Below, in pieces: positions 22,740-34,719 of a stretch of 64,000 nt of DNA. Within the stretch, counting starts at the first letter, position 1. The number at the start of each line of letters is the position of its first letter. Origin of the DNA: an uncultured Aliarcobacter sp. (GTDB lineage Bacteria; Campylobacterota; Campylobacteria; Campylobacterales; Arcobacteraceae); the NCBI GenBank assembly GCA_963664305.2, contig CAXXLV010000001.1, forward strand, positions 832,001 to 896,000, given 5' to 3'. Under the pieces are notes generated by a model. It made no database searches. It worked only from the letters and a program-made list of their open reading frames with translations, and was not told the origin of the DNA. Made by a program: the position numbers and the translations under genes.

Positions 22740-22816
22740 GCGTCTGTAGTTCAACTGGATAGAATGGCCGGTTTCGACCCGGTAGGTTGTGGGTTCGAAT
22801 CCTACCAGGCGTGCCA
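22740..22816 (+). tRNA. tRNA-Arg (anticodon TCG)
   Basis: Acceptor stem GCGTCTG/CAGGCGT, anticodon arm GCCGG-TTTCGAC-CCGGT, GTTCGAATCC T-arm, encoded CCA. Confidence 0.96.
22798..22816 (+). repeat. att core (tRNA 3' end copy)
   Basis: AATCCTACCAGGCGTGCCA. Confidence 0.92.
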
Positions 22817-22848
22817 CTATTCCTTAAAAACCCTTAAAATAAGGGCTT

Positions 22849-24012
22849 TCAAATACTCTCATTTTTTTTAGGTGTCAATTCGGTGTCTAATGGTGTCAGA
22901 ATTTTTTTAAAACAATTTCCGAAATTCATATTCTGAATTGGTATATATTGTGAATATTTTTCAAGAGTTATTTTTACATTTTCGTGTCCAGCAATTTTAC
23001 TCACATAGTTTATATCTTCCCCATTACTAATTAGAGTTGATATAAATGTTCCTCTTGTTTGATGTAGATTTCTATATTCTACATTTGCTTTTTCTATTAT
23101 TGGTATCCAAATTTGTTCTCTTATTTTTCCAGCTGAATGAAAATGTTTATTTGTTCTTGTTGTTAAAAATACAAATGAATTATGATTCCCCGTTATTATT
23201 TTTTGATTTTCTAAAAAAGGAATTAAAGGTTCTATTATTGGAATAATTCTCTTGCTTTTAGTCGTTTTCAAAATATCTTTTATTTGCCCGTTTACAATTT
23301 GTCTCTTTACTGTGATAGTTCTATTTTCAAAATCTATACAATCCCAAGTTAGACCTATACATTCTCCTATCCTTAATCCAGTCATAAAAAGAACGGCTAT
23401 TAAGTTTTTATCTTGATTGGTAGCCACTGATAAAATTTGAATTATTTCTTCCGTTTTAAAAGGTGTTAGTTCTATTCTTTTAACTTTTGATTGTTCAGTT
23501 TGTTTTATTGTTTTTACCTTTTTAATAGGATTTATTTTAATAATTTCATTTTCAATAGCATCTTCAAACATTGTATATAACAATCCCCTAATTTTTAAAA
23601 TATAGCTTTTAGATAATTTATACTCTTTTTGAAGATTGTTTTGCCATAAAGTAATTTCAGAAGGTTTTACTTTATCTAATGTTTTATGCCCAAATGTTTC
23701 CTTTATATATTTATCATAATTCTTTTGGTGTCCATATATAGTGCTTTGACATCTACCACCTTTGTGTAATTCAAAAGAAAAATTCATATATTCTTCAACA
23801 GTTGGAATTTTTTTGTTTTGGTTTAATTCTCCATTCATTAGTTTGTATTGTAATATAGGAAGAATTTCATTTTCTGCTTTTTTATAATTAGCTTTTGTAT
23901 TTTCCATTTCAAGAGGTTTTCTGAATCTTTTTCCATTAATTGTATAGTTTACCCATAACCATTCTTTTGTTTGCCCTTTTTTATTTTTTACTTGTTTTAT
24001 ATAGATATTCAT
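22849..24012 (-). CDS. tyrosine recombinase / site-specific integrase
   Basis: N-terminal arm-binding-like region; TGLRIGE, K, HQTR, AGH, EKY catalytic residues. Confidence 0.95.
   Translation of the reverse strand: MNIYIKQVKNKKGQTKEWLWVNYTINGKRFRKPLEMENTKANYKKAENEILPILQYKLMNGELNQNKKIPTVEEYMNFSFELHKGGRCQSTIYGHQKNYDKYIKETFGHKTLDKVKPSEITLWQNNLQKEYKLSKSYILKIRGLLYTMFEDAIENEIIKINPIKKVKTIKQTEQSKVKRIELTPFKTEEIIQILSVATNQDKNLIAVLFMTGLRIGECIGLTWDCIDFENRTITVKRQIVNGQIKDILKTTKSKRIIPIIEPLIPFLENQKIITGNHNSFVFLTTRTNKHFHSAGKIREQIWIPIIEKANVEYRNLHQTRGTFISTLISNGEDINYVSKIAGHENVKITLEKYSQYIPIQNMNFGNCFKKILTPLDTELTPKKNESI
22871..22897. repeat. candidate integrase arm-type sites (3x GGTGTC)
   Basis: GGTGTC at 22871, 22882, 22892; matching GGTGTC/GGTGCC pair at 30499 and 30510 near the other att. 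Confidence 0.65.
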
Positions 24013-24021
24013 TTTTTCTCC

Positions 24022-24342
24022 TTATGCTACATTTTCTAATATTCTATTTGCTAATAATTCATAATTTTTATTAGTTGTTTTATCTGAACACATTATCCAT
24101 TTATCAATTTCTGTTTTATCAAATATATTTTTCCTATGTTTTTTGTAATAGTGTAAGTCAATTACAAATTCTTCATCCTTAATCATATTTTTTATGCTCT
24201 CTTTGCTATATCCAATATATTCACTTAGTTCCTCTGTTGTTAACCATCGTTTTTCAATTTTATTCATTTCTCTATCTCTTAACAAAACTAATATGTTATA
24301 AATTTCTTGTATTTTTTCTAAATTTTCTAATGCTATATTCAT
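24022..24342 (-). CDS. excisionase-like HTH protein
   Basis: RWLTTEELSEYIGYSKESIKNMI...FDKTEIDKWI; directly upstream of integrase. Confidence 0.8.
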   Translation of the reverse strand: MNIALENLEKIQEIYNILVLLRDREMNKIEKRWLTTEELSEYIGYSKESIKNMIKDEEFVIDLHYYKKHRKNIFDKTEIDKWIMCSDKTTNKNYELLANRILENVA

Positions 24343-24367
24343 TATATTTCCTTTTTATATTGATTTA

Positions 24368-24530
24368 GTGTACAAAAATCTACACATTGCAAATAAAAAA
24401 TATATGTCAATAAAAGTGTAGAAAAATGTACATTGAAATTCTATAACGAATTTACTTAAGTGTACATTAAAGTACACAAAAAATAAATCTTTAAACATTA
24501 TTAATATAAAATGTGTACAAAAAAATACAC
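24368..24530. promoter_or_regulatory. four palindromic operators GTGTA-N8-TACA(C/T) in the divergent promoter region
   Basis: Copies at 24368-24385, 24416-24433, 24460-24477, 24513-24530. Confidence 0.8.
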
Positions 24531-24542
24531 AAAGTTTATAGA

Positions 24543-24947
24543 ATGATTAAAAAGAAAAAAGAAAGAAAAAAAGTTTTATTGAATGATTTTGATAGTGACT
24601 TATTAAATAAAAAAGAAATTAATGAACTATTTGGAATTTTAAAAGAATTAAAAGAAAAATTAAAATTTTACATAGAAAAAAATGAATTAGATAATAAAAT
24701 AAAAAATATTGATAATTTATATTCAATTACAATACAAGAAACTGAAAGAAATATTAGACTACTAGCAACCATTTTAGAATTAAAAGATAATGAAGAAGTT
24801 GAAAAAAAGATTTCATTGGTTACATTAGCATTAAGCGATAAAAAAACTGATAAATATTCAGAAATTATAAATCTAAAAAGAGCATTTTATTCTTATAGAC
24901 ATTTATTAATCACATTAGAATTTTTAAATCCAAATTTAAATGAATAA
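24543..24947 (+). CDS. hypothetical helical protein (possible element regulator)
   Basis: ORF track starts at GTG 24513, which lies inside operator 4; in-frame ATG at 24543 is the more likely start. Confidence 0.55.
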   Translation: MIKKKKERKKVLLNDFDSDLLNKKEINELFGILKELKEKLKFYIEKNELDNKIKNIDNLYSITIQETERNIRLLATILELKDNEEVEKKISLVTLALSDKKTDKYSEIINLKRAFYSYRHLLITLEFLNPNLNE

Positions 24948-24981
24948 TTAAACCTGACACTTTTAATTAAATAGGTCAAGA

Positions 24982-25019
24982 GTAAGCTTACAACTCACTT
25001 GCGTGAGTTTTCAGCTTAC
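24982..25019. other. hairpin: candidate rolling-circle origin or bidirectional terminator
   Basis: GTAAGCT-TAC-AACTCAC-TTGC-GTGAGTT-TTC-AGCTTAC. Confidence 0.55.
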
Positions 25020-25022
25020 GAA

Positions 25023-26312
25023 CTATATATTTTTTGAGTAAATTTTAAGAATTGTATTTAAAAAATTGTCTGAAATAAAAGGTATTTGAAAAAGATTTTT
25101 ATCACTTGTAAAACCATTTTTAATAATTGCTCTACCTTTTGTAAAATCTTGAATTTCTTTCGTAGAGATTCTTTCTCGAATATTATCTTTTAAATCTATA
25201 ATATTTATATTATTATCGTTTGCAGTTTTTAATAATACTCTTGATTGAATATTATTTGTAATTGCAGTTGGTAGAATGGTACTATCAATTTTTTGACCAA
25301 ATAAAAATAATAAGATTCCTGAGGCTCTTCCTTGCATAGCTATCAAAGAAAGCTTATTAAATATAGATTCACGAATTTTTTTATCAGGATAAACACTAAC
25401 AGCACCTATCTCGTCAAATATTAGTAATGTATATGTATCTATTTTTCTAATATTATTTTCTAACATATATTTTTGAGTAGATTCCAATTCTTTTAAAACA
25501 CTATCTAGTAATATATCTAGTTTTTCAATACTTGAAACAAACTCTACATTATCAATTTTTTCATATTGTTTTAATTCAACTCCACCTTTGAGGTCAATCA
25601 TATACATTTTATTAAATCTATTAGAATTATGTAAAAAGTTTATGTTAAAAAGTTGCATTAAATTTGATTTTCCACTCCCTGATTCACCTACAATTAGGTG
25701 GTGGTCTAAAGAATTTATATCTCGATAATAAAAGCCTTTTTCATATATTCCTAGGAATAAGTAATCTTTTTTAAATAAAGAAAAATCAATAGAATAAAAA
25801 TTGGGTAACTTATAAAATGATAGAACTACACTTTTATTTTTTTTTGCTTTTATACTTACTTCATAATCATTTGAAATAATCCCCAAATAATGCAGGATTT
25901 TTTCTTTATTTTTTCTATAAGTTTCTAAATCAATTGAAACTAAATTTGCATATTCAAGCTCAAACCTTTTTAAATCCTTTGTAAAAATTTCTTCCAGAAC
26001 ATTTTTTGATTTAATATTTTTTTTAGATATAAAGAAATCCAAAAATAGTGTTCTTTTATTTCGTATCTCAATTAAAGTGTTATGTGAAAACAAGCTATGA
26101 AAGTTAAGAGAATAAGGCATTAAAATATATTTCCAGTTCCACATATAATATATAGAAACCAATAAAGAAGATATAGTAATCATGATGTATAAAGAATCTA
26201 ATTCCTCTTTAAAATCTTTTGTTGATAAACTTATTGCTGTAACATACATTATAAAACAAAAGAAGCCCATTATTAATAGGCTTCGGAAATAACTTATGAT
26301 TCCGTATATCAT
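25023..26312 (-). CDS. membrane-anchored FtsK/SpoIIIE-family ATPase (TcpA/TraB-like)
   Basis: Two N-terminal TM helices; HHLIVGESGSGKS, IDLKGGVE, LIFDE, GRASGILLFLFGQK. Confidence 0.88.
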   Translation of the reverse strand: MIYGIISYFRSLLIMGFFCFIMYVTAISLSTKDFKEELDSLYIMITISSLLVSIYYMWNWKYILMPYSLNFHSLFSHNTLIEIRNKRTLFLDFFISKKNIKSKNVLEEIFTKDLKRFELEYANLVSIDLETYRKNKEKILHYLGIISNDYEVSIKAKKNKSVVLSFYKLPNFYSIDFSLFKKDYLFLGIYEKGFYYRDINSLDHHLIVGESGSGKSNLMQLFNINFLHNSNRFNKMYMIDLKGGVELKQYEKIDNVEFVSSIEKLDILLDSVLKELESTQKYMLENNIRKIDTYTLLIFDEIGAVSVYPDKKIRESIFNKLSLIAMQGRASGILLFLFGQKIDSTILPTAITNNIQSRVLLKTANDNNINIIDLKDNIRERISTKEIQDFTKGRAIIKNGFTSDKNLFQIPFISDNFLNTILKIYSKNI

Positions 26313-26572
26313 TTTAACATAGGCTCACTTTGTGTAAAAAAAAGTTTGTTTTCAAAACTTGAAACTTTAACTGGGATTTTTACTGTTAAACCTTCTTTAA
26401 TAGATAAAGTATCATTTTTATCAGTTAATTTTATTTGTTGAATTTCAACACCACCGTTATCATTTTTATTAAGGAATTGTACATATATAACTTCTTCTTC
26501 CTTATACATTTTCTTTGCCATTGCAAAAACTTGACCTGTTATAATTATTTTTGAATTCATTTTTTTCTCCAA
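26309..26572 (-). CDS. small beta-rich protein, putative ssDNA-binding (OB-fold-like)
   Basis: 87 aa with alternating beta-strand pattern, directly downstream of HUH Rep; fold is inferred. Confidence 0.5.
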   Translation of the reverse strand: MEKKMNSKIIITGQVFAMAKKMYKEEEVIYVQFLNKNDNGGVEIQQIKLTDKNDTLSIKEGLTVKIPVKVSSFENKLFFTQSEPMLK

Positions 26573-26575
26573 TAT

Positions 26576-27754
26576 TTAAATTTTTATTTTTATATATTTT
26601 TCTTTTTTATAAACTAATTCTTTATTTATAAAAATTTCTAACTTGTCAATATAATTGTGACAAGCACCTTTAACTGAAAATTGTGTGATATATTTAAAAA
26701 GAATTATGGAAGAATTTTTATTCACTAAAAATTGATTTATGTTAGTTTGCCCTTTTTGTTTAACAAACTTTATAATAGATATATTTTTTAAAATATAATA
26801 AAAAATACTTTTACCAGTTGATGAAGCTTTTTTTAATAGCTTATCTTTTTCATTCCTATCTATACTGTGATAAATAGTCCTATAATCACCTAAAGATAAA
26901 TCTAAGTTCGATGAAGTGATTATTTTAATTTTATTAACTCTTTTCCAGCCGTCAAGTAGTCGAGCTAAATAATAGTCTGAACCCGTTTTTAGAGACTTAG
27001 TTATATATTTCATTAAATATAATGCAGGTCTACTAATACCAGATTTAAATCTGATTTTTTCTAATTCTTTCTTATCAAAATGAACTAAGTTAAAATCGTT
27101 TTGATTCAACTCAAATTCATCTATAATTTTATCAAATTTTTCTCTTACTTTTTCACTTATGCTACTTTTTTTGTTTGTTATTTTTGAATTCTTTTTTTTA
27201 CTTTTTTTAACAATAGTTTCATCTTTTACATAAAGTAAAATGTGAACATGTGGAATTAAAGTTTTATGTATTTCAAATACTTTAATATAATAAAGTTTTT
27301 TTGAAATATTTTTTATTCTTTTATAAAAAACTCTAAATACATTATTTAAAAATTTGTAACCTTGCAATATTGATTCTTCTATACTTTTAAAATCAAAATT
27401 TTTATTTATGCTAGTGTATAATCTTCTATTTTTATAATTTATAGAAGAAAAAGGATGAAAATTTGAAGGTAAAGTAAAAGTAATAAATATAGGCATTAAA
27501 CCTTCTTCTTTTGCCAAATCTTCAATGCAAAAAATTTTTTGTTCTATTGATTTTATATATTTTTTATAATTATTATCAAAGGAATAATTAATATTTAGGC
27601 ATTCACCAGTTTTTTCGTTACTAAACAAATATTTTTTTAAATAATTTTGTTGATTTAACTCCTTCCGTAAAGATGTTTTATAGTAAGAATCTTTTAAAAA
27701 TTCATATTGACTGAATAAAGGTTCTTCTTGCAATTCTTTAGTTGCATATATCAT
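26576..27754 (-). CDS. HUH rolling-circle replication initiator (two-tyrosine type)
   Basis: Motif I FITFTLP, motif II PHVHILLY, motif III YLMKYITK, in Rep-class order. Confidence 0.88.
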   Translation of the reverse strand: MIYATKELQEEPLFSQYEFLKDSYYKTSLRKELNQQNYLKKYLFSNEKTGECLNINYSFDNNYKKYIKSIEQKIFCIEDLAKEEGLMPIFITFTLPSNFHPFSSINYKNRRLYTSINKNFDFKSIEESILQGYKFLNNVFRVFYKRIKNISKKLYYIKVFEIHKTLIPHVHILLYVKDETIVKKSKKKNSKITNKKSSISEKVREKFDKIIDEFELNQNDFNLVHFDKKELEKIRFKSGISRPALYLMKYITKSLKTGSDYYLARLLDGWKRVNKIKIITSSNLDLSLGDYRTIYHSIDRNEKDKLLKKASSTGKSIFYYILKNISIIKFVKQKGQTNINQFLVNKNSSIILFKYITQFSVKGACHNYIDKLEIFINKELVYKKEKYIKIKI

Positions 27755-28015
27755 TTAATTTTCTCTCTGAAACTCTTTCATGAAAATCATGAAGAGCCTA
27801 GAAGGAAAGAAGAGTTTTATTTTAAATTTTTAGTTTATTTTGCACCTTTATTTTAGATGTTATATATAGTTGTAAAAAAAAATATAAGTTTTTCTCTATT
27901 TATTTTATAAATAGGAATAAAAAAATTATGAAATAATAATTTTCATTGGAACTTTTAATATAATAATTGTTAGTATTGTAAAATATTAACGATATTAACC
28001 TAAGGAAATAAAAGC

Positions 28016-30481
28016 ATGATAAAAGCATTTTTATCTCATTCTTCATCGGATAAAGACAAATTTGTTAGAATAGTTGCCGATAAGCTAAAAAACAAACATG
28101 GAATTCACTATGATGAATATACTTTTGAAATAGGAAATAAAACAATTGATGAAATTTTAGAAGGTTTAGATAAAACTGATTTATTTGTTTTTTTTATTTC
28201 AGAAAATTCATTAGAATCAGAGTGGGTAAAAAAAGAAGTTTTAGTTGCAACAAATAATTTAGGAAATAGGACAAAACAGTTTTATCCAATTATTATTGAT
28301 AAAAACATTACATATAAAGATGAAAGAATTCCTGAGTGGTTAGTAAGTGAATATAATATTAAATTTGTAAGTAAGCCAACAGTTGTAGCTAAACGAATTG
28401 AACAAAAATTAAGAGAAATATCTCTTAAAAAACATCCAAAATTAATGAAAAAAAATAATTTATGTATAGGTAGAAATAAAATTCTTGAAAATTTTGAGGA
28501 AAGATTAGATAATTTTGAGAAAGCTCAACCTAAATGTATAATTGCAACGGGACTAGAATCAATTGGAAGAAGAACATTTTTAAAATATGCTCTTGTTAAA
28601 ACGGATATTATCAATCAATACTACACCCCAAATTCTATTTATCTTGATACAAATGATAGTATAGAAGATTTTATTTTAAAAATAAATGATTTTGGATTTT
28701 TAGATATTGATTCAGATTTATCAGATTTATTATCTAAAAATCAAGACTATAAAATAAATTTAGCAATTAATATTTTAAAAGAAATACAATCAAACAATGA
28801 AATTATTTTGATATTAGATAATGGTTGTATTGTAAATTATGAAAGAAAATTTTCTAATTGGTTTAGAAAAATAATTGAGTCTAGTGAATTAGATAATAAA
28901 GTTCTTATTTGTACTGCTTCAAAATATAAAGTTCATTATACTGAAATTAATAATGATGCCTTTTATTCGGAGCATGTTGATGATTTAACTCCATCTGAAA
29001 GAAAAAGATTATTTAAAAGATTATTAGAAATATATGATATTGAAATGGTAGTAGATGATTTTAACTATATAAGTGATACTTTCAAAGGTCTTCCTGAACA
29101 AATTTTATATTGTGTAGATTATATTGATAGAACTAATATAGAAACTGTGAAAAAAAATATTCATGAAATTAGAGAGTTTAATGATGAAAAAGCTTCAGCG
29201 CTTATTAAACATTATCAAGAAGATGAGTACATATTGTCTTTAATAAGATTAATTGCTCAATTTGAGATAATAAGCATAGAGTTTTTAAATGAGATAATAT
29301 CTGATGAAACAATTAATGAAATATTAGAAATATTAGTTACAGAAAATATTTGTGAATATTTTGGTTATGATGGACAATTTATCAGAGTAAATGATTCCAT
29401 TAGAGATTATATAATTAGGAATAGATTAAAAATAAAAGAAGAATATTTAACTAAAATAAAAACACATGTTTCAGCATTTATTCGTTCTGATGAGAAAATT
29501 GAAAAGGATTCTAGTGATTATTTGTTTTCTTTAAAACAAGCATTATTAGAAGGTGAAGAAATTGATGAAAATTTATTATTACCATCCCATTTTTTAAGAA
29601 CAATGAAAGATTTATATCATAATGGAAGTTTACAGAAAGTAATCGATTTAGCATATAAAGTTTTAGAGAAAGAAGAGTACATTGATTATTATTTAGCAAA
29701 TGATATAAAATACTATTTGTGTTTAGCTTTGGCAAAAAAAAGAGATAAAAGAGTTTTAGATGAAGTTCAAAGAATTAATGGTGATCAACATAATTTTGTT
29801 TTAGGATATTATTACAGATTAATAGGAGAATATACAAAAGCAATAGATAGATTGAAATCTATAGTTGATTCACAATATATAAAAGCAAGAGCAAAGCGAG
29901 AAATTGTACATTGTTATATTCAAACAGAAGGATATTCAAAAGCCCTTAGTTTTGCTAAAGATAATTATATAGAGAATAGAAATTATATATATCATGTTCA
30001 ATTATATTTTTATTGTCTAATTTATAGTGATAAAAGTTTTGAAAATAAAGAAGAACTTAGAAGAATTACTATTGAGTTAAAGAGATTGAGTGTGGAATCT
30101 AATATGGATATGGGAGACAGAGCAGAGGCTCTTTATCTAGCAAAGTGTGAGAATAAAGAAGAAGAATCATTAAGATTAATAAATGATGCAATTGCAAAAT
30201 ATCCAGATAGTTATTACCCGTTATTAACTAAATTTGATATTGCACTTAAATTTTATAATATAAATGAAATGGAAGATTGTATTTTAAAACTTGAAAAATT
30301 TAATGGTAAAACTTTATCTAAAAAAACATATACTAAACAAAAAGCATATTTTATTGCATTAAAAGAGAAAAATGCAACGAAAGCTAAACAGTTAATTATT
30401 GATGATTTAAATAAATATCCTCAGGAAGCAAAAGATTTGATTTTAGAAAAAATTGATTATTTAGCAAATAAATTAAAATAA
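28016..30481 (+). CDS. TIR domain - STAND-like NTPase - TPR-like protein, candidate anti-phage defence
   Basis: AFLSHSSSDK...FISENSLESEWVKKE TIR; IGR...GLESIGRRT P-loop-like; ILILDN Walker B-like; helical repeats at the C-terminus. Confidence 0.8.
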   Translation: MIKAFLSHSSSDKDKFVRIVADKLKNKHGIHYDEYTFEIGNKTIDEILEGLDKTDLFVFFISENSLESEWVKKEVLVATNNLGNRTKQFYPIIIDKNITYKDERIPEWLVSEYNIKFVSKPTVVAKRIEQKLREISLKKHPKLMKKNNLCIGRNKILENFEERLDNFEKAQPKCIIATGLESIGRRTFLKYALVKTDIINQYYTPNSIYLDTNDSIEDFILKINDFGFLDIDSDLSDLLSKNQDYKINLAINILKEIQSNNEIILILDNGCIVNYERKFSNWFRKIIESSELDNKVLICTASKYKVHYTEINNDAFYSEHVDDLTPSERKRLFKRLLEIYDIEMVVDDFNYISDTFKGLPEQILYCVDYIDRTNIETVKKNIHEIREFNDEKASALIKHYQEDEYILSLIRLIAQFEIISIEFLNEIISDETINEILEILVTENICEYFGYDGQFIRVNDSIRDYIIRNRLKIKEEYLTKIKTHVSAFIRSDEKIEKDSSDYLFSLKQALLEGEEIDENLLLPSHFLRTMKDLYHNGSLQKVIDLAYKVLEKEEYIDYYLANDIKYYLCLALAKKRDKRVLDEVQRINGDQHNFVLGYYYRLIGEYTKAIDRLKSIVDSQYIKARAKREIVHCYIQTEGYSKALSFAKDNYIENRNYIYHVQLYFYCLIYSDKSFENKEELRRITIELKRLSVESNMDMGDRAEALYLAKCENKEEESLRLINDAIAKYPDSYYPLLTKFDIALKFYNINEMEDCILKLEKFNGKTLSKKTYTKQKAYFIALKEKNATKAKQLIIDDLNKYPQEAKDLILEKIDYLANKLK

Positions 30482-30517
30482 AAATCTATAATTCAATTGG
30501 TGTCAAATTGGTGCCTT

Positions 30518-30584
30518 TAAATACCATTTATTAGCTTCATAAAATATAATTAATATTTTAGGAGTAATGACTAAATGGTATTTA
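30518..30584. repeat. long imperfect inverted repeat inside the element's right end
   Basis: TAAATACCATTTA (30518-30530) / TAAATGGTATTTA (30572-30584), inner TAAAATAT/ATATTTTA. Confidence 0.7.
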
Positions 30585-30609
30585 TTAGTTAAGAGTTCGA
30601 TTCCTATAA

Positions 30610-30628
30610 AATCCTACCAGGCGTGCCA
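30610..30628 (+). repeat. att core (distal duplicate of tRNA-Arg 3' end)
   Basis: AATCCTACCAGGCGTGCCA identical to 22798-22816. Confidence 0.92.
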
Positions 30629-31070: not shown

Positions 31071-31619
31071 TTGCCATATCTTGTTTCATCAATAATTGCA
31101 ATTGTTTCAGCTTTAATAATTTTACTTACTAGATATGAAGCTGATGACAGTACAATAACAAGTGAACTTGATAGAATGAAATCTATGTTTATAACAATGG
31201 ATGGATTTGTAAATACTTATATTCAATCTGGTGGAACTTTATCAAGTATAAATTTTGAGGAATTGGATAAAGCGGGTATTTTATTATCAAATATGGAAAT
31301 AACTCCAGTAGCAGATACAAATTCTAGTACTGGTGAAAATAAAACTACAACAAAATTTCCAAATAGTGAAGTGATTTGGCAAATTATACCAAATATAAAT
31401 GACACTAGTTCATATAAACTTTTAGTAGATATGTCAAAAGCTAGTGCATTGATGAGTAAGGCTATTTTCTCAGAAAGTTTCTCAGGTCGAGAATTTTGTG
31501 AAAAGATGCTTTTTGGTACATTTGATCAAAATGGAAGTGCATATGTTGAGGGAACAAAAGATTTTGGAACAACAGGCACAACAAAAGACGGAATTTTTGT
31601 TTGTATAGTTTTTAAGTGA
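31071..31619 (+). CDS. pilin-like protein without class III leader
   Basis: TTG start after AAGGA; N-terminal hydrophobic helix MPYLVSSIIAIVSALIILL, amphipathic helix, C-terminal Cys pair. Confidence 0.6.
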   Translation: MPYLVSSIIAIVSALIILLTRYEADDSTITSELDRMKSMFITMDGFVNTYIQSGGTLSSINFEELDKAGILLSNMEITPVADTNSSTGENKTTTKFPNSEVIWQIIPNINDTSSYKLLVDMSKASALMSKAIFSESFSGREFCEKMLFGTFDQNGSAYVEGTKDFGTTGTTKDGIFVCIVFK

Positions 31620-31700
31620 TTTTTGGTGCAACTAAAATAATAGTTGTTGTATAATAGGGCGGTTGGTAGGTAAACTTAAATTTAATAAAGGGGAAAGAAA

Positions 31701-32399
31701 ATGCCACAGTTGATAGCTATGATTATCGTAGTAGTTGGAGCAATGATTTATATGTTCCAAACATTTGGAGGAACTGGAGATAAAATCGAAGGTATTGCAC
31801 AAAAAACAAGTATTATTACTGAAATTAATAATATAAAAGATGGGGTTAAAATCGCAGCTAAATCAGAGCAAATTGCAAGTACAGCATCAGGTGATAAAGT
31901 TAACACTTTAGAGGGATTAGCAGCTCTTTCATATTTTGCAGAACAAATTAATACACAATTAACTGATACAAATAATAATGCAAATAATGCAAATATATAT
32001 AATGCTATTTCATTTGGTGGTGGAGTTGTATCTGCTGCAACAAATACTAGTGATATGCAAATTTCTTTAGTAGCACCAGCTGCAGTTGGTACTGTAAAAA
32101 GAGTACCTGGAATATTTGTAGATTTTTCTAAAGGTGGTTTATCTTCAAATGCTGCATTTTTAGAATCACAAATAGCAAGTGATTTAGCTGCTGTAGCTTA
32201 CATAGATAGAACAGCAACAAGTGCTACAGCAAAAAGTGGAGTAATTAGTTCAACAGGTTCATCTATTGAACAACGAACACCTGCTATTGGTACTGTAGAT
32301 GCTGATGGGAAGCCTGTTGATCCTACAGCTGCTCAATTAGGTGATGGAATGTTCATTCTTTATTTTAAAGATTTTGGTTCAGACGAAGTAGTTCAATAA
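31701..32399 (+). CDS. putative major pilin-like subunit without class III leader
   Basis: MPQLIAMIIVVVGAMIYMFQTFGG plus long amphipathic helix, Ala/Ser/Thr/Gly-rich head; TATAAT at 31650, strong RBS, downstream hairpin. Confidence 0.65.
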   Translation: MPQLIAMIIVVVGAMIYMFQTFGGTGDKIEGIAQKTSIITEINNIKDGVKIAAKSEQIASTASGDKVNTLEGLAALSYFAEQINTQLTDTNNNANNANIYNAISFGGGVVSAATNTSDMQISLVAPAAVGTVKRVPGIFVDFSKGGLSSNAAFLESQIASDLAAVAYIDRTATSATAKSGVISSTGSSIEQRTPAIGTVDADGKPVDPTAAQLGDGMFILYFKDFGSDEVVQ

Positions 32400-32424
32400 T
32401 ATTTAGGCTTTTGCCTAAATATTA
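32397..32424 (+). terminator. perfect 12-bp stem after putative major pilin gene
   Basis: TAATATTTAGGC-TTTT-GCCTAAATATTA followed by T-run. Confidence 0.75.
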
Positions 32425-32501
32425 TATTTTAAAAAACAAAACCTAAGTGCTAAGTATTAGCATTTACTTTTTGTTTTACTCTTAAAAAAGGTTTTTTTCT
32501 A

Positions 32502-33236
32502 ATGTTGGGAAATATATGGCTATCATCGGCACTTATTGTTACAGCTATATTTTCTGCAGGTGCTATGTATAAATCTTATAGTGATATTCAAGAAGCAAAA
32601 CAAATCCAAGAACATTATGAAATAATCTCTGAAATCAAAACTTTATTAGCCAAGCAATACAATAAAAATCCAGATGAAATAACACGTGATGATATTATTG
32701 CCAATTTACCAAAAGGTGAAAACTGGGGAAAAGTTCTTCTTCTTGATAGAAATAAAGATAGCAATCTTTCTAATAAAGAGTTAGTAAATGAAACTGGAAA
32801 TTTTGAGATAAGTGAAGATGAAAAGTTAAAATTACTTGCACTAAAAGCAAAACTAAAAGATGTTATTGATGTAACTTCAATTGAACCAGTTGATAAAAAA
32901 TATACTTTTGAAGTTGGGAAAGTTGAGAAAAATAGAGTATTAAATGATATTGATATTGAAGAAAATTTAACAAAAGCAATACATTTTTTGGCAGATGAAA
33001 TCTTATATAATACAAGTTCAAATAAAGAAACTACATTGAATGCAATTTTAGATGAGTTTACCCCTTATGATAAGCTTTATTTTGATTTTTTAAATAATGG
33101 CGAAACTTCGATTAGCGAACAAACGTTAAAAGATAGGAAAAAAGCTTATTTTAAATCAAGAATAAAAGATAGACTTTATAAAAATGAGAATGCACTTGAA
33201 ACAAGACTTTATAAAGAGTTGAAAGATATATTATGA
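32502..33236 (+). CDS. minor pilin-like / N-terminally anchored protein
   Basis: N-terminal hydrophobic helix followed by amphipathic helix; inside type IV filament cluster. Confidence 0.5.
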   Translation: MLGNIWLSSALIVTAIFSAGAMYKSYSDIQEAKQIQEHYEIISEIKTLLAKQYNKNPDEITRDDIIANLPKGENWGKVLLLDRNKDSNLSNKELVNETGNFEISEDEKLKLLALKAKLKDVIDVTSIEPVDKKYTFEVGKVEKNRVLNDIDIEENLTKAIHFLADEILYNTSSNKETTLNAILDEFTPYDKLYFDFLNNGETSISEQTLKDRKKAYFKSRIKDRLYKNENALETRLYKELKDIL

Positions 33237-33958
33237 AGAAAATTTTATTTATTTTATTTTTATTGATTAACTCATCTTTTGCTTTAGATTTAACTAATTT
33301 TGAAGATAGACAAAGTGCTCTTCAAGATGTAAAAACAATCATCTTATATGAAGAATCAATAGCAAAAGCTTATGAAGAGTATATTTTAACAAACTACAAG
33401 TTTCCAACTCTTGCTGAAATAAAAACATTGATAGGGAATTTAACTTTAGTAAATAATGTAAATTCAAATATAGCTTTGAGTAGTACATTGACAAAAATCT
33501 CTTATGGTTTAAATAGTGATTTAAAAGCTGATACTTCAATAAAAGCTTTATATGAAAGTAATACATATAGAAAAAGAACTTATGTTAGGAATGATGAGGT
33601 AAACTTTATTTTAGAAGATGAATTTGCGAAACATTTATATGATTTAATCAAACAAAATGGTGGCGCAATTCAAGATTGTCCAACGACAGCATTTACAACA
33701 GCTGTAAATTGTAAAGAGAATAATCATATTTATATTAAATTGACAAAAAAACTTGATGGTTTAGAAGTTGTTCCAAATACATATTTGATAGCATATCATG
33801 TTGATAATTTTAAAAATGGACCGATAATTATTACAAACGATACTTCAAAACATATTACTGAAAATGCTTTCGATTCTATACCAAAAGGTGCTTTGTTATA
33901 TGACATTGACGGTGTAAAATATGTAAAAACTTTAGATGGAATAGAGATTTTAAAATGA
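33233..33958 (+). CDS. exported protein with pseudopilin-head-like domain (paralog 1)
   Basis: Sec signal ending SFA; EESIAKAYEEYILTNYKFPT; LYESNTYRKRT. Confidence 0.6.
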   Translation: MKKILFILFLLINSSFALDLTNFEDRQSALQDVKTIILYEESIAKAYEEYILTNYKFPTLAEIKTLIGNLTLVNNVNSNIALSSTLTKISYGLNSDLKADTSIKALYESNTYRKRTYVRNDEVNFILEDEFAKHLYDLIKQNGGAIQDCPTTAFTTAVNCKENNHIYIKLTKKLDGLEVVPNTYLIAYHVDNFKNGPIIITNDTSKHITENAFDSIPKGALLYDIDGVKYVKTLDGIEILK

Positions 33959-34719
33959 TTAGACAATTTATACTTTTGATTACAATTTTAATATCATCTT
34001 TTTCACAAGATACATTAACAGCTCAAAAACAAAATACTTTATATATTCAAGATTTGATTCAAATAGAAGAGAATATCGCAAAAAATTTTGAAAAATATAT
34101 TTTAACTGAATATAAAATTCCAACAATAACAGATTTAATAGATGATAACTATTTAGGAAGTAATTTTTCTGTACTAAATAGAATGGGTGAAAATATTGAT
34201 TTTAAAGATAGTTCAAAATTACAACTAAAATATGCAATTACAAAAGATGAATATAGAAAAACAAGAGATGAAAATCTAGGAATTGAAAATTTTTTAGTTC
34301 AACTTTACAATAGAGATTTATACAGAGATTATACGACAGTTTTTAGTGATGATACTGATGTAAATAATATGTACGTTGAGTTTGAGCTAAAATCCGATGA
34401 AGCAAAAAATATATTTGATTTATTAAAAAATGGAAATAGTATTGCAAAAACTTGTGTTGCATCACTAAAAAGTACTTATTGCAACAATAATGATAGAACA
34501 ATTAGATGGTATAACGCTAGTTCAAATTGGATTGAATATGATAAAAAAGATTTTAATAAAGGGAATATAACAGTTAGTAGTGAAAGTATTTTAACTTCAG
34601 AAACAACAAAACTTTCAAATTTAAAAGTTGGTAGTTATATCTATATAAAAGATAAAACAAAAAATGTAAAAATGATAGATGATTCTTCTGGAAATTTACA
34701 AATTCTAAAGGTGGATTAA
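33955..34719 (+). CDS. exported protein with pseudopilin-head-like domain (paralog 2)
   Basis: Sec signal; EENIAKNFEKYILTEYKIPT...NYLG; LYNRDLYRDYT. Confidence 0.6.
   Translation: MIRQFILLITILISSFSQDTLTAQKQNTLYIQDLIQIEENIAKNFEKYILTEYKIPTITDLIDDNYLGSNFSVLNRMGENIDFKDSSKLQLKYAITKDEYRKTRDENLGIENFLVQLYNRDLYRDYTTVFSDDTDVNNMYVEFELKSDEAKNIFDLLKNGNSIAKTCVASLKSTYCNNNDRTIRWYNASSNWIEYDKKDFNKGNITVSSESILTSETTKLSNLKVGSYIYIKDKTKNVKMIDDSSGNLQILKVD

Follow-up and report, generated by a model that had tools for sequence, protein, structure and literature searches.

What kind of mobile element is the small island at a tRNA-Arg gene of an uncultured Aliarcobacter sp., and by what route could it move? The window analysed is a 64,000-nt stretch of DNA (contig CAXXLV010000001.1 of assembly GCA_963664305.2, forward-strand positions 832,001 to 896,000), and the coordinates below are numbered within it. 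An earlier note on this DNA, made from the sequence alone, had proposed a minimal integrative rolling-circle element with a replication initiator (Rep), a single-stranded DNA (ssDNA)-binding protein (SSB) and an FtsK-like ATPase, resembling the AICEs, which are integrative and conjugative elements of actinomycetes. We find a real, probably active tRNA-inserted mobile island with an anti-phage gene. Its Rep, a small protein with a predicted oligonucleotide-binding (OB) fold and a membrane ATPase form a fixed module. We hold, with slightly better than even confidence, that it is a small element of the integrative and mobilizable (IME) type, which would be excised, processed by Rep in a rolling-circle manner and exported as ssDNA by the ATPase.

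The integration target is the only tRNA gene that ARAGORN finds in the window, a tRNA-Arg with the anticodon TCG (22740–22816, plus strand). Its 3′ end is the attachment (att) core attL, the 19-nt exact direct repeat AATCCTACCAGGCGTGCCA (22798–22816, plus strand), and the second copy is the attR core (30610–30628, plus strand), both identified by a repeat search and by reading the sequence. The left end of the element regenerates the 3′ end of the tRNA. The insert, taken as the segment between the repeat copies plus one copy, measures 7,812 bp. Its G+C content is 19–24% against 25–33% in the flanks, while the 19-nt repeat itself is G+C-rich.

Empty sites were sought by searching the 11.9-kb stretch that spans the element in 40 relatives, 24 of them of the same genus. 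In 5 of the 24 (G021, G003, G014, G001 and G007), the two flanks join directly and share the 19-nt core, the left-flank match stopping at the tRNA and the right-flank match starting on the same 19 nt. They lie 75–290 nt apart in 3 more same-genus genomes (G019, G016 and G022). The sequences of the empty sites were read in G021 and G014, and both show the core unaltered and, next to it, a homologue of the sequence that lies beyond attR in the window. The joined flanks in five genomes and the nearly joined ones in three make the insertion more than a matter of chance. The island is a discrete integrative element with intact ends, and its insertion is polymorphic among relatives.

The same tRNA-Arg site is used in two species, G024 and G017, by integrases 83–84% identical to that of the window. 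The G024 element (L052:1135-7819) has 6,665 bp and the same att core, with two Sel1-repeat proteins in place of the defence gene and the three-gene module inverted relative to the integrase gene. Its integrase is 84% identical to the window's, its three module proteins just 34–37%, so the integration and DNA-processing modules recombine. At the G017 site (L053:3844-8388), the integrase, 83% identical, is followed by insertion-sequence transposases (HTH_Tnp_1 / rve and DDE_Tnp_1) and there is no triad. This island at the tRNA-Arg hotspot is a decayed or different one.

Seven open reading frames (ORFs) of the element were scanned against Pfam, PHROGs, NCBIfam and PADLOC, and all ORFs of at least 100 aa are accounted for. 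The three module genes lie side by side on the minus strand, in the order rep (26576–27754), OB gene (26309–26572) and ATPase gene (25023–26312), the stop of the second overlapping the start of the third by 4 nt. Beyond them, the element encodes a tyrosine integrase, an Xis-like protein, a lysine-rich protein and the defence cargo. None of the seven matches a family of type IV secretion system (T4SS), capsid or coat proteins in these libraries. No structural PHROG was matched, and coat genes shorter than 60 aa fell outside the systematic search.

The 392-aa Rep is an HUH rolling-circle protein and putative relaxase. It matches PF05840 (Phage_GPA) with E 9.7e-13 and 48.3 bits against a cut-off of 31.4, and also phrog_91, ‘nicking at origin of replication’, with E 1.7e-12. 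All 17 family members keep the residues of the HUH motif in its HxH form (H169 and H171) and of the YxxxY motif (Y246 and Y250), together with K249 and K253, without exception. Below threshold, Pfam also gives PF23343 and PF20199 (RepSA; E 0.0062, 16.2 bits vs a cut-off of 34), and the Pfam scan finds no match to PF02486, PF01719 or PF02407.

Relatives of this Rep are few, just 17 clusters among 5.8 billion, and no PDB chain matches at E up to 1. None is found in the 2.9 million viral contigs of IMG/VR. We considered a viral origin and rejected it, as there is no IMG/VR relative and the phage matches are to P2-like gpA proteins at 25–26% identity over 38% of the protein. A plasmid origin was likewise rejected, the sole Rep match being a weak one to a Salmonella ‘replication endonuclease’.

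A candidate origin lies 19–51 nt upstream of rep (27773–27805, minus strand), where CCTTCTAGG (27797–27805) is followed by an imperfect 24-nt palindrome (27773–27796). The pattern CCTT[TC]TAGG occurs within 100 nt upstream of the rep start in 14 of 34 elements and has just 15 plus-strand matches in the 254,898 nt of 38 loci; close variants are present in eight or nine further family members. The motif with its palindrome is probably the origin and a candidate nick site, or else a control site of rep. RNAalifold on the rep leader gives a stem of 3 bp only, inside the conserved motif.

The rep leaders of relatives show another feature. In L008:3004-3059 and 16 other related loci, the 10 nt after the conserved motif CCTTTTAGG can form a stem with the opening 10 nt of the rep frame that encloses the ribosome-binding site. 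In this stem 81.8% of the cells are paired, against 31–43% when the partner is slid; compensatory changes occur in 5 of the 10 pairs, and the covariation score is reached by none of 500 shuffles, although the stem was drawn from the same sequences as were tested, which biases the test towards it. Such a stem could serve translational control of rep or act as an origin hairpin.

The middle gene of the module encodes an 87-aa protein, for which the ATG at 26560 is the likelier start. No sequence family of Pfam, PHROGs or NCBIfam matches it. Its AlphaFold2 model (pLDDT 88.4) is a barrel of five to six strands with one short helix. SSB and PriB chains of bacterial and mitochondrial origin lead the Foldseek rows, with E of 1.3e-3 and weaker, none reaching 0.001. 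VIA-align, which is independent of Foldseek, gives mostly SSB, PriB and other OB domains with Z of 8.8 to 6.7, where a best Z of 7–8 is typical of models without a clear match. The OB fold is a good call from the model, and an SSB- or PriB-like function may go with it.

The predicted complex of Rep and the OB protein scored 0.33 against 0.00 for the best control. Of 157 solved complexes, 116 attain the mark for such scores, as do 2 of 215 mismatched pairs; at 0.60 or below, just 18 of the 157 do so, along with both passing mismatches. The prediction runs agree in at least 80% of the contacts, and the partner pLDDT is at least 80. This weakly suggests that Rep binds the OB protein.

The third protein is a TcpA-like ATPase of the FtsK/SpoIIIE family with 429 aa and two N-terminal transmembrane helices (PF01580, E 2.9e-13). 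In its model (pLDDT 88.1), the long N-terminal helices span residues 2–30 and 34–68. The Walker A residues G209, S211, G212, G214, K215 and S216 and the Walker B residue E301 are invariant in 28 homologues, and D300 beside E301 is conserved in at least 90% of the sequences. By phmmer, the PDB entry that the ATPase matches best in sequence is TcpA, the conjugation coupling protein of pCW3 (E 6.4e-9). TcpA also tops the Foldseek rows, with E from 6.6e-23 to 1.1e-20, and the FtsK motor (6.9e-19), EssC and HerA rank below it; no VirD4 or TrwB chain is among the rows listed.

This ATPase family comprises about 100 clusters, the named ones from Sulfurimonas, Sulfurospirillum and Halarcobacter. Its plasmid relatives amount to 175 records, all below 28% identity, with 107 from Clostridium, 31 from Bacillus and 9 from Streptomyces. 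PADLOC matches to SspH, mad8 and HerA raised the possibility of a defence protein, and they reflect generic FtsK/HerA P-loop likeness. We rejected that role because what accompanies the gene from element to element is Rep and the OB protein, not any one cargo.

The three genes stay together in relatives. The OB gene lies downstream of rep in 27 of 27 related contigs with room for it and the ATPase gene in 26 of 26, and of 12 further loci fetched from genomes, 11 have the full triad. The three genes are a fixed module and a family trait. Around it, the integrases vary; among them are a type of 387 aa that comes with Xis and a DUF6538 type of 578 aa. The targets beside or flanking the elements vary as well, among tRNA-Arg, Ser, Leu, Asn and Met and tmRNA.

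The cargo of the relatives is mostly defence, such as HamA, restriction-modification, an R.HinP1I-methylase fusion, other methylases, ParE, AbiEii/AbiTii and GmrSD; DUF7380/DUF4209 and Sel1-repeat proteins are found too. One relative (L015) is complete with 8,091 bp and bounded by 65-nt repeats at tRNA-Ser. Two minimal ones (L032 and L029) carry Rep, OB protein, ATPase, Xis and Int only. No terminal overlap of 15–200 nt that would mark a circular contig was seen in any of 41 related loci.

An alignment-based Rep scan yielded 6 loci from species genomes and 32 from metagenomes, and viral contigs gave none. The six are from an Arcobacter, three Sulfurimonas, a Campylobacterales metagenome-assembled genome and a bin labelled Bacteroidales, and all named sources are Campylobacterota except that one metagenome bin. 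Within the genus, 4 species genomes out of 44 have a strong Rep of the family. When the phylum was sampled evenly with 401 genomes, each at least 90% complete, 10 carried the Rep and 9 of these the full triad, and the two largest families have none (f18, 0 of 118; f11, 0 of 158). The module family occurs in at least four families of the phylum.

We found no described equivalent in Campylobacterota in the literature, supplements of the cited papers aside, which agrees with the earlier note. The module defines a previously undescribed family of elements in environmental Campylobacterota. That note had also read intact att repeats, a tyrosine integrase, an Xis-like protein, an HUH Rep with YxxxY, a small beta-rich protein and a membrane-anchored FtsK ATPase at this locus, with no T4SS, capsid or coat genes, and the repeats, domain matches and models above bear out each of them at the coordinates that it gave. 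The search that it proposed, for the Rep-SSB-FtsK triad at tRNAs in related genomes, showed the triad to be strongly conserved. The earlier note was silent on the defence gene and the lysine-rich ORF.

The window's own genome holds two other Rep-bearing loci. One is an inovirus-like prophage (contig C2, about 1,568,500–1,576,000; L056:5475-12964). It begins with ORFs of 63, 486 and 137 aa, followed in order by Zot (E 1.1e-16), a secretin (E 3.6e-27), an ORF of 67 aa, a Rep of the Phage_GPA family (E 1.2e-20), a small ORF resembling Xis and a tyrosine integrase. The prophage Rep is distantly related to that of the element, with 34% identity over residues 28–196, and the 67-aa ORF has no likeness to the OB protein.

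The other is a second minimal element (contig C2, about 1,254,300–1,257,700; L057:9309-12716), which has no FtsK-like gene. It encodes an integrase, an Xis-like ORF and a Phage_GPA Rep (E 8.5e-24), and ORFs of 88 and 159 aa come before these. At the start of the 88-aa ORF, 10 of 14 residues are identical to the OB protein of L054, with no further likeness. We tried this ORF as a relative of the OB protein and rejected it; only the N-terminal stretch of 14–15 residues is common, the hhalign probability is 6% and BLASTP gives E 5e-4 for a single pair.

If the element is an IME, its cycle can be outlined as follows. Int and Xis would recombine the 19-nt cores and free a 7.8-kb circle. The HUH Rep would then nick one strand at an origin close to the 5′ end of rep and start rolling-circle replication, yielding ssDNA. 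The OB-fold protein might bind this ssDNA or assist Rep, like HelP, OrfL and OrfM in ICEBs1 and ICESt3. The membrane-anchored TcpA-like ATPase would pump the DNA across the inner membrane, and in a new host Int would insert the circle into tRNA-Arg, where the TIR-NLR anti-phage cargo could benefit the host. Excision, nicking, replication and export are the steps that we infer.

As in an IME, the island combines a site-specific integrase, att repeats and insertion polymorphism with no mating-pore genes of its own. As in a TcpA-type coupling protein, the ATPase has two N-terminal transmembrane helices and finds TcpA best by both phmmer and Foldseek. The closest parallels are the IMEs of streptococci. 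In the cited part of Coluzzi 2017 (PMC5357655), these have a compact order of relaxase, Xis and Int, with tcpA preceding in 83 of 118, and their relaxases carry PF02486, PF01719, PHA00330 or PF02407. The relaxases are described there and in the cited part of Guedon 2017 (PMC5704250) as related to rolling-circle initiators.

The element shares much with these streptococcal IMEs: an island of a few kb between direct repeats, often at a tRNA 3′ end, a tyrosine integrase with Xis, a Rep-like nickase replacing the canonical relaxase, a two-helix FtsK-family ATPase of TcpA type and no T4SS of its own. It differs in that its host is a diderm Campylobacterota and not a Firmicute, its Rep is a Phage_GPA-type HUH protein and not one of PF02486, PF01719 or PF02407, and it has an OB-fold gene between rep and the ATPase gene. 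Moreover, helper integrative and conjugative elements (ICEs) with TcpA and a mating-pair formation system of FA type (MPF-FA) were not found in any host genome searched for VirB4.

The OB gene may have its counterpart in another group. ICEBs1, ICESt3 and Tn916 combine a MOBT relaxase, an OB-fold protein (HelP, OrfL or OrfM) and a TcpA-type coupling protein, and these OB-fold proteins work with relaxases of rolling-circle replication type, according to the cited part of Laroussi 2025 (PMC12614216). A relaxase related to rolling-circle initiators (a putative one in our element), a small OB protein as a likely auxiliary and an FtsK-related ATPase stand side by side in both, and the relaxase of these ICEs, in the portion of the work on them that we cite, also drives replication of the excised element. 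The differences are that our Rep is an HUH protein and not Rep_trans (PF02486, MOBT), that the element's one OB protein has no sequence likeness to any family, and that it has no mating-pore genes in cis and resides under a diderm envelope.

In domain content, the element is closer to the Firmicutes IMEs and ICEs than to the AICEs. It departs from the Firmicutes class in host and helper and probably in relaxase family, from the AICEs in Rep and accessory genes, and from the inoviruses in Zot and coat, so we file it as a variant of the already defined Firmicutes class of IMEs with rolling-circle relaxase and TcpA, and not as a separate class. The reading of the earlier note is partly supported. 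The Firmicutes IMEs with Rep-like relaxase and TcpA, which that note also mentioned, turn out to be the closer comparison, with TcpA as the best solved relative of the ATPase.

Several points weigh against the IME reading. The OB-fold scores are middling (Foldseek E of about 1e-3, Z 8.8), the 87-aa protein has no sequence link to HelP, and no HelP-family chain is among its listed fold matches. A family-profile search scores FtsK (E 1.4e-13) about equal to TcpA (E 6.6e-12) for the ATPase, so the label ‘TcpA-like’ has a modest margin. Rep may be a replicase only, and the long inverted repeat of related rep leaders is missing from that of the window. One locus, in G319 (L064:3887-9364), has the Rep without the ATPase and is the sole fetched locus that breaks the triad. 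The Rep there has 443 aa and E 1.5e-67 to the family profile, and a weak OB-like ORF lies 2.5 kb upstream.

No helper is evident. The partners of TcpA in the literature are MPF-FA systems of monoderms, and these were not found here. VirB4 (PF03135) is absent from the window's own genome, as from every one of the 9 genomes with the triad in the phylum sample, and an AAA_10-type VirB4 is in none of the 10 Rep-bearing sample genomes, G319 included, while the control was detected in B. subtilis. Within the genus, VirB4 does occur in two additional carriers, G017 and G019, so a co-resident VirB4 is missing in 9 of the 11 triad-bearing genomes checked.

For the background, VirB4 (PF03135) is present in 117 of the 401 genomes, mostly in f18 and f11. 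Its rates in the module-bearing families are 3/23 (f1), 0/34 (f15), 0/8 (f17) and 2/19 (f20), as compared with 65/118 (f18) and 45/158 (f11) in the two families where the module was not seen. Of the 9 sample genomes with the triad, 3 (G000, G421 and G084), the window's genome included, have Zot at E 1e-8 or better, against a background of 16/84 in the same families. These co-residence counts are small and the kin are not independent. No candidate helper is regularly co-resident with the module.

The helper-poor hosts lead to a bolder alternative, in which the triad is a self-sufficient, donor-side module for T4SS-independent DNA export in diderms. Rep would make the ssDNA, the OB protein would coat it and the ATPase would push it out. 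The recipient's competence machinery would then take it up in a ‘push-pull’ manner, or the DNA would leave through a borrowed secretin. A precedent is the ‘transjugation’ by TdtA of Thermus ICETh1, where a donor ATPase pushes the DNA and the recipient competence machinery takes it up (Blesa 2017, PMC5365140, in its cited part). The two share the idea of T4SS independence with an element-encoded donor ATPase, a conceptual likeness only. If true, this export would explain why the module is found in VirB4-rare families and none is seen in the VirB4-common f18 and f11. We regard it as unlikely, while giving it more weight than any of the alternatives below.

Slightly less credit goes to an integrated rolling-circle plasmid that is not self-transferred. 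Its Rep and OB protein would copy the excised circle, its ATPase would handle segregation or dimers, and it would spread by natural transformation or other passive routes. The lack of transfer machinery in the element and in most host genomes fits this, as do the family profile, in which FtsK scores as well as TcpA, and the relatives of Rep that are replication initiators in P2-like phages. However, a two-helix membrane pump translationally coupled to an SSB-like gene is unusual for partition, and the closest solved relative of the ATPase is a conjugation coupling protein. The spread over at least four families with varied integrases and tRNA targets also implies efficient horizontal movement.

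The Rep and the SSB-like protein could instead be a phage replication pair of pII / pV type, left in a satellite or remnant of an inovirus whose ssDNA would be packaged and extruded by a resident inovirus. A Rep gene followed by that of a small ssDNA-binding protein is the inovirus gene order. The Rep here belongs to the Phage_GPA / G2P group and is followed by a small OB protein, and inovirus-like prophages within the genus have related Reps. In particular, the prophage of the window's own genome has Zot, a secretin, the related Rep (34% over residues 28–196), Xis and Int, and Zot is found in 3 of the 9 triad-bearing sample genomes.

Nevertheless, the element has no Zot (no PF05707 match, as compared with E 1.1e-16 for the prophage ORF), no secretin and no coat gene, and no Zot or coat-like gene is found in any related element scanned. 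No Rep relative was found in the 2.9 million viral contigs. Six of the 9 triad-bearing sample genomes lack Zot, its background being 16/84 in the same families. The ATPase is FtsK/TcpA-like with N-terminal membrane helices, and a membrane ATPase of its own would be needless for a satellite, yet it is kept in 26 of 26 contigs with room. We consider an inovirus satellite or remnant improbable.

The element shares with AICEs of the pSAM2 type the set of Int, Xis, rolling-circle Rep and a single FtsK-family ATPase on a small tRNA-inserted element, but its Rep scores 16.2 bits on RepSA against the cut-off of 34, it has no Spd, Pra, Kor (KorSA) or Nudix genes and does have an SSB-like gene, its ATPase is probably nearer to TcpA, and its host is unicellular and diderm; the AICE likeness of the earlier note is thus reduced to an analogy. 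Self-transfer in the AICE manner, in which the FtsK-like ATPase alone would move double-stranded DNA to a neighbour cell as TraB does for pSAM2 or pIJ101, is the least probable of all, for although that gene outline, VirB4 in 0 of 9 triad-bearing sample genomes and the 9 Streptomyces plasmids among the 175 ATPase-matching records speak for it, the best solved ATPase relative is TcpA and not a mycelial double-stranded DNA pump, the outer membrane of a diderm is uncrossable for one inner-membrane ATPase, the adjoining SSB-like protein points to ssDNA, and TraB transfer is described for mycelial Actinobacteria only in the cited parts of Guedon 2017 (PMC5704250) and Guglielmini 2013. AICEs are nearly confined to Actinobacteriota in the cited part of Botelho 2023.

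The integrase (22849–24012, minus strand) has 387 aa and an arm-binding-like N-terminus, with matches to PF00589 (E 1.6e-21), phrog_1 (E 3.8e-59), PF14659 (E 3.4e-6) and PF12167 (E 1.7e-4). The Xis-like HTH_17 protein of 106 aa (24022–24342, minus strand) matches PF12728 (E 4.8e-7) and phrog_66 (E 3.7e-6), other excisionase PHROGs being weaker than this and TIGR01764 (E 0.0018) staying under its cut-off. The cargo is a TIR-NLR anti-phage defence protein of 821 aa (28016–30481, plus strand; PADLOC PDLC03015, E 2.4e-232; TIR_2, E 5.6e-15). It is full-length, with residues 1–818 aligning to positions 1–822 of the 824-position profile.

Two candidate arm-type sites of the integrase follow the pattern GGTGYCRAWT on the plus strand, GGTGTCAATT at 22871–22880 and GGTGTCAAAT, followed by TGGTGCC, at 30499–30508 near attR. 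The pattern has only these 2 matches in the 64 kb, one just inside each att end, and two or more matches occur in 4 of 100 shuffles. The two sites, which read GGTGTCAAWT, are likely the arm sites of the integrase.

The divergent region between xis and orf144 (24368–24530) contains four 17-nt palindromes of the type GTGTAC-N5-GTACAC, starting at 24368, 24416, 24460 and 24513 with spacings of 48, 44 and 53 nt. The looser pattern GTGTAN{6,10}TACA has 11 matches in the window, 7 of them in this region; 2.14 are expected window-wide, and none of 100 shuffles reaches 11. The palindromes occur in this element only, the related element loci lacking them, and probably act as operators of an element regulator. 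The adjoining orf144 encodes a lysine-rich protein of 144 aa (24513–24947, plus strand, from the ORF list), for which the ATG at 24543 is the likelier start. It has no family in the four libraries and no tblastn match in 41 related loci.

Outside the element, five consecutive same-strand ORFs of 182–254 aa (31071–34719) start 440 nt past attR. Each has a hydrophobic N-terminal segment, and none reaches the curated cut-off of a Pfam family. Parts of this region are conserved in the empty-site relatives, so it is host DNA.

TcpA-type proteins with rolling-circle-type relaxases and OB helpers have hitherto been treated as a Firmicutes speciality, and in its cited part Guglielmini 2013 found no TcpA homologues outside Firmicutes and no TraB outside Actinobacteria. 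The same functional trio is now seen in environmental Campylobacterota, on tRNA islands of 6.6–8.1 kb that ferry single anti-phage systems. As most of the hosts have no T4SS, either a DNA-processing module of this kind can be coupled to widely differing ways out of the cell, or diderms have a T4SS-independent route. With their small size and five core genes, these elements offer a tractable system for how minimal mobile islands spread defence genes.

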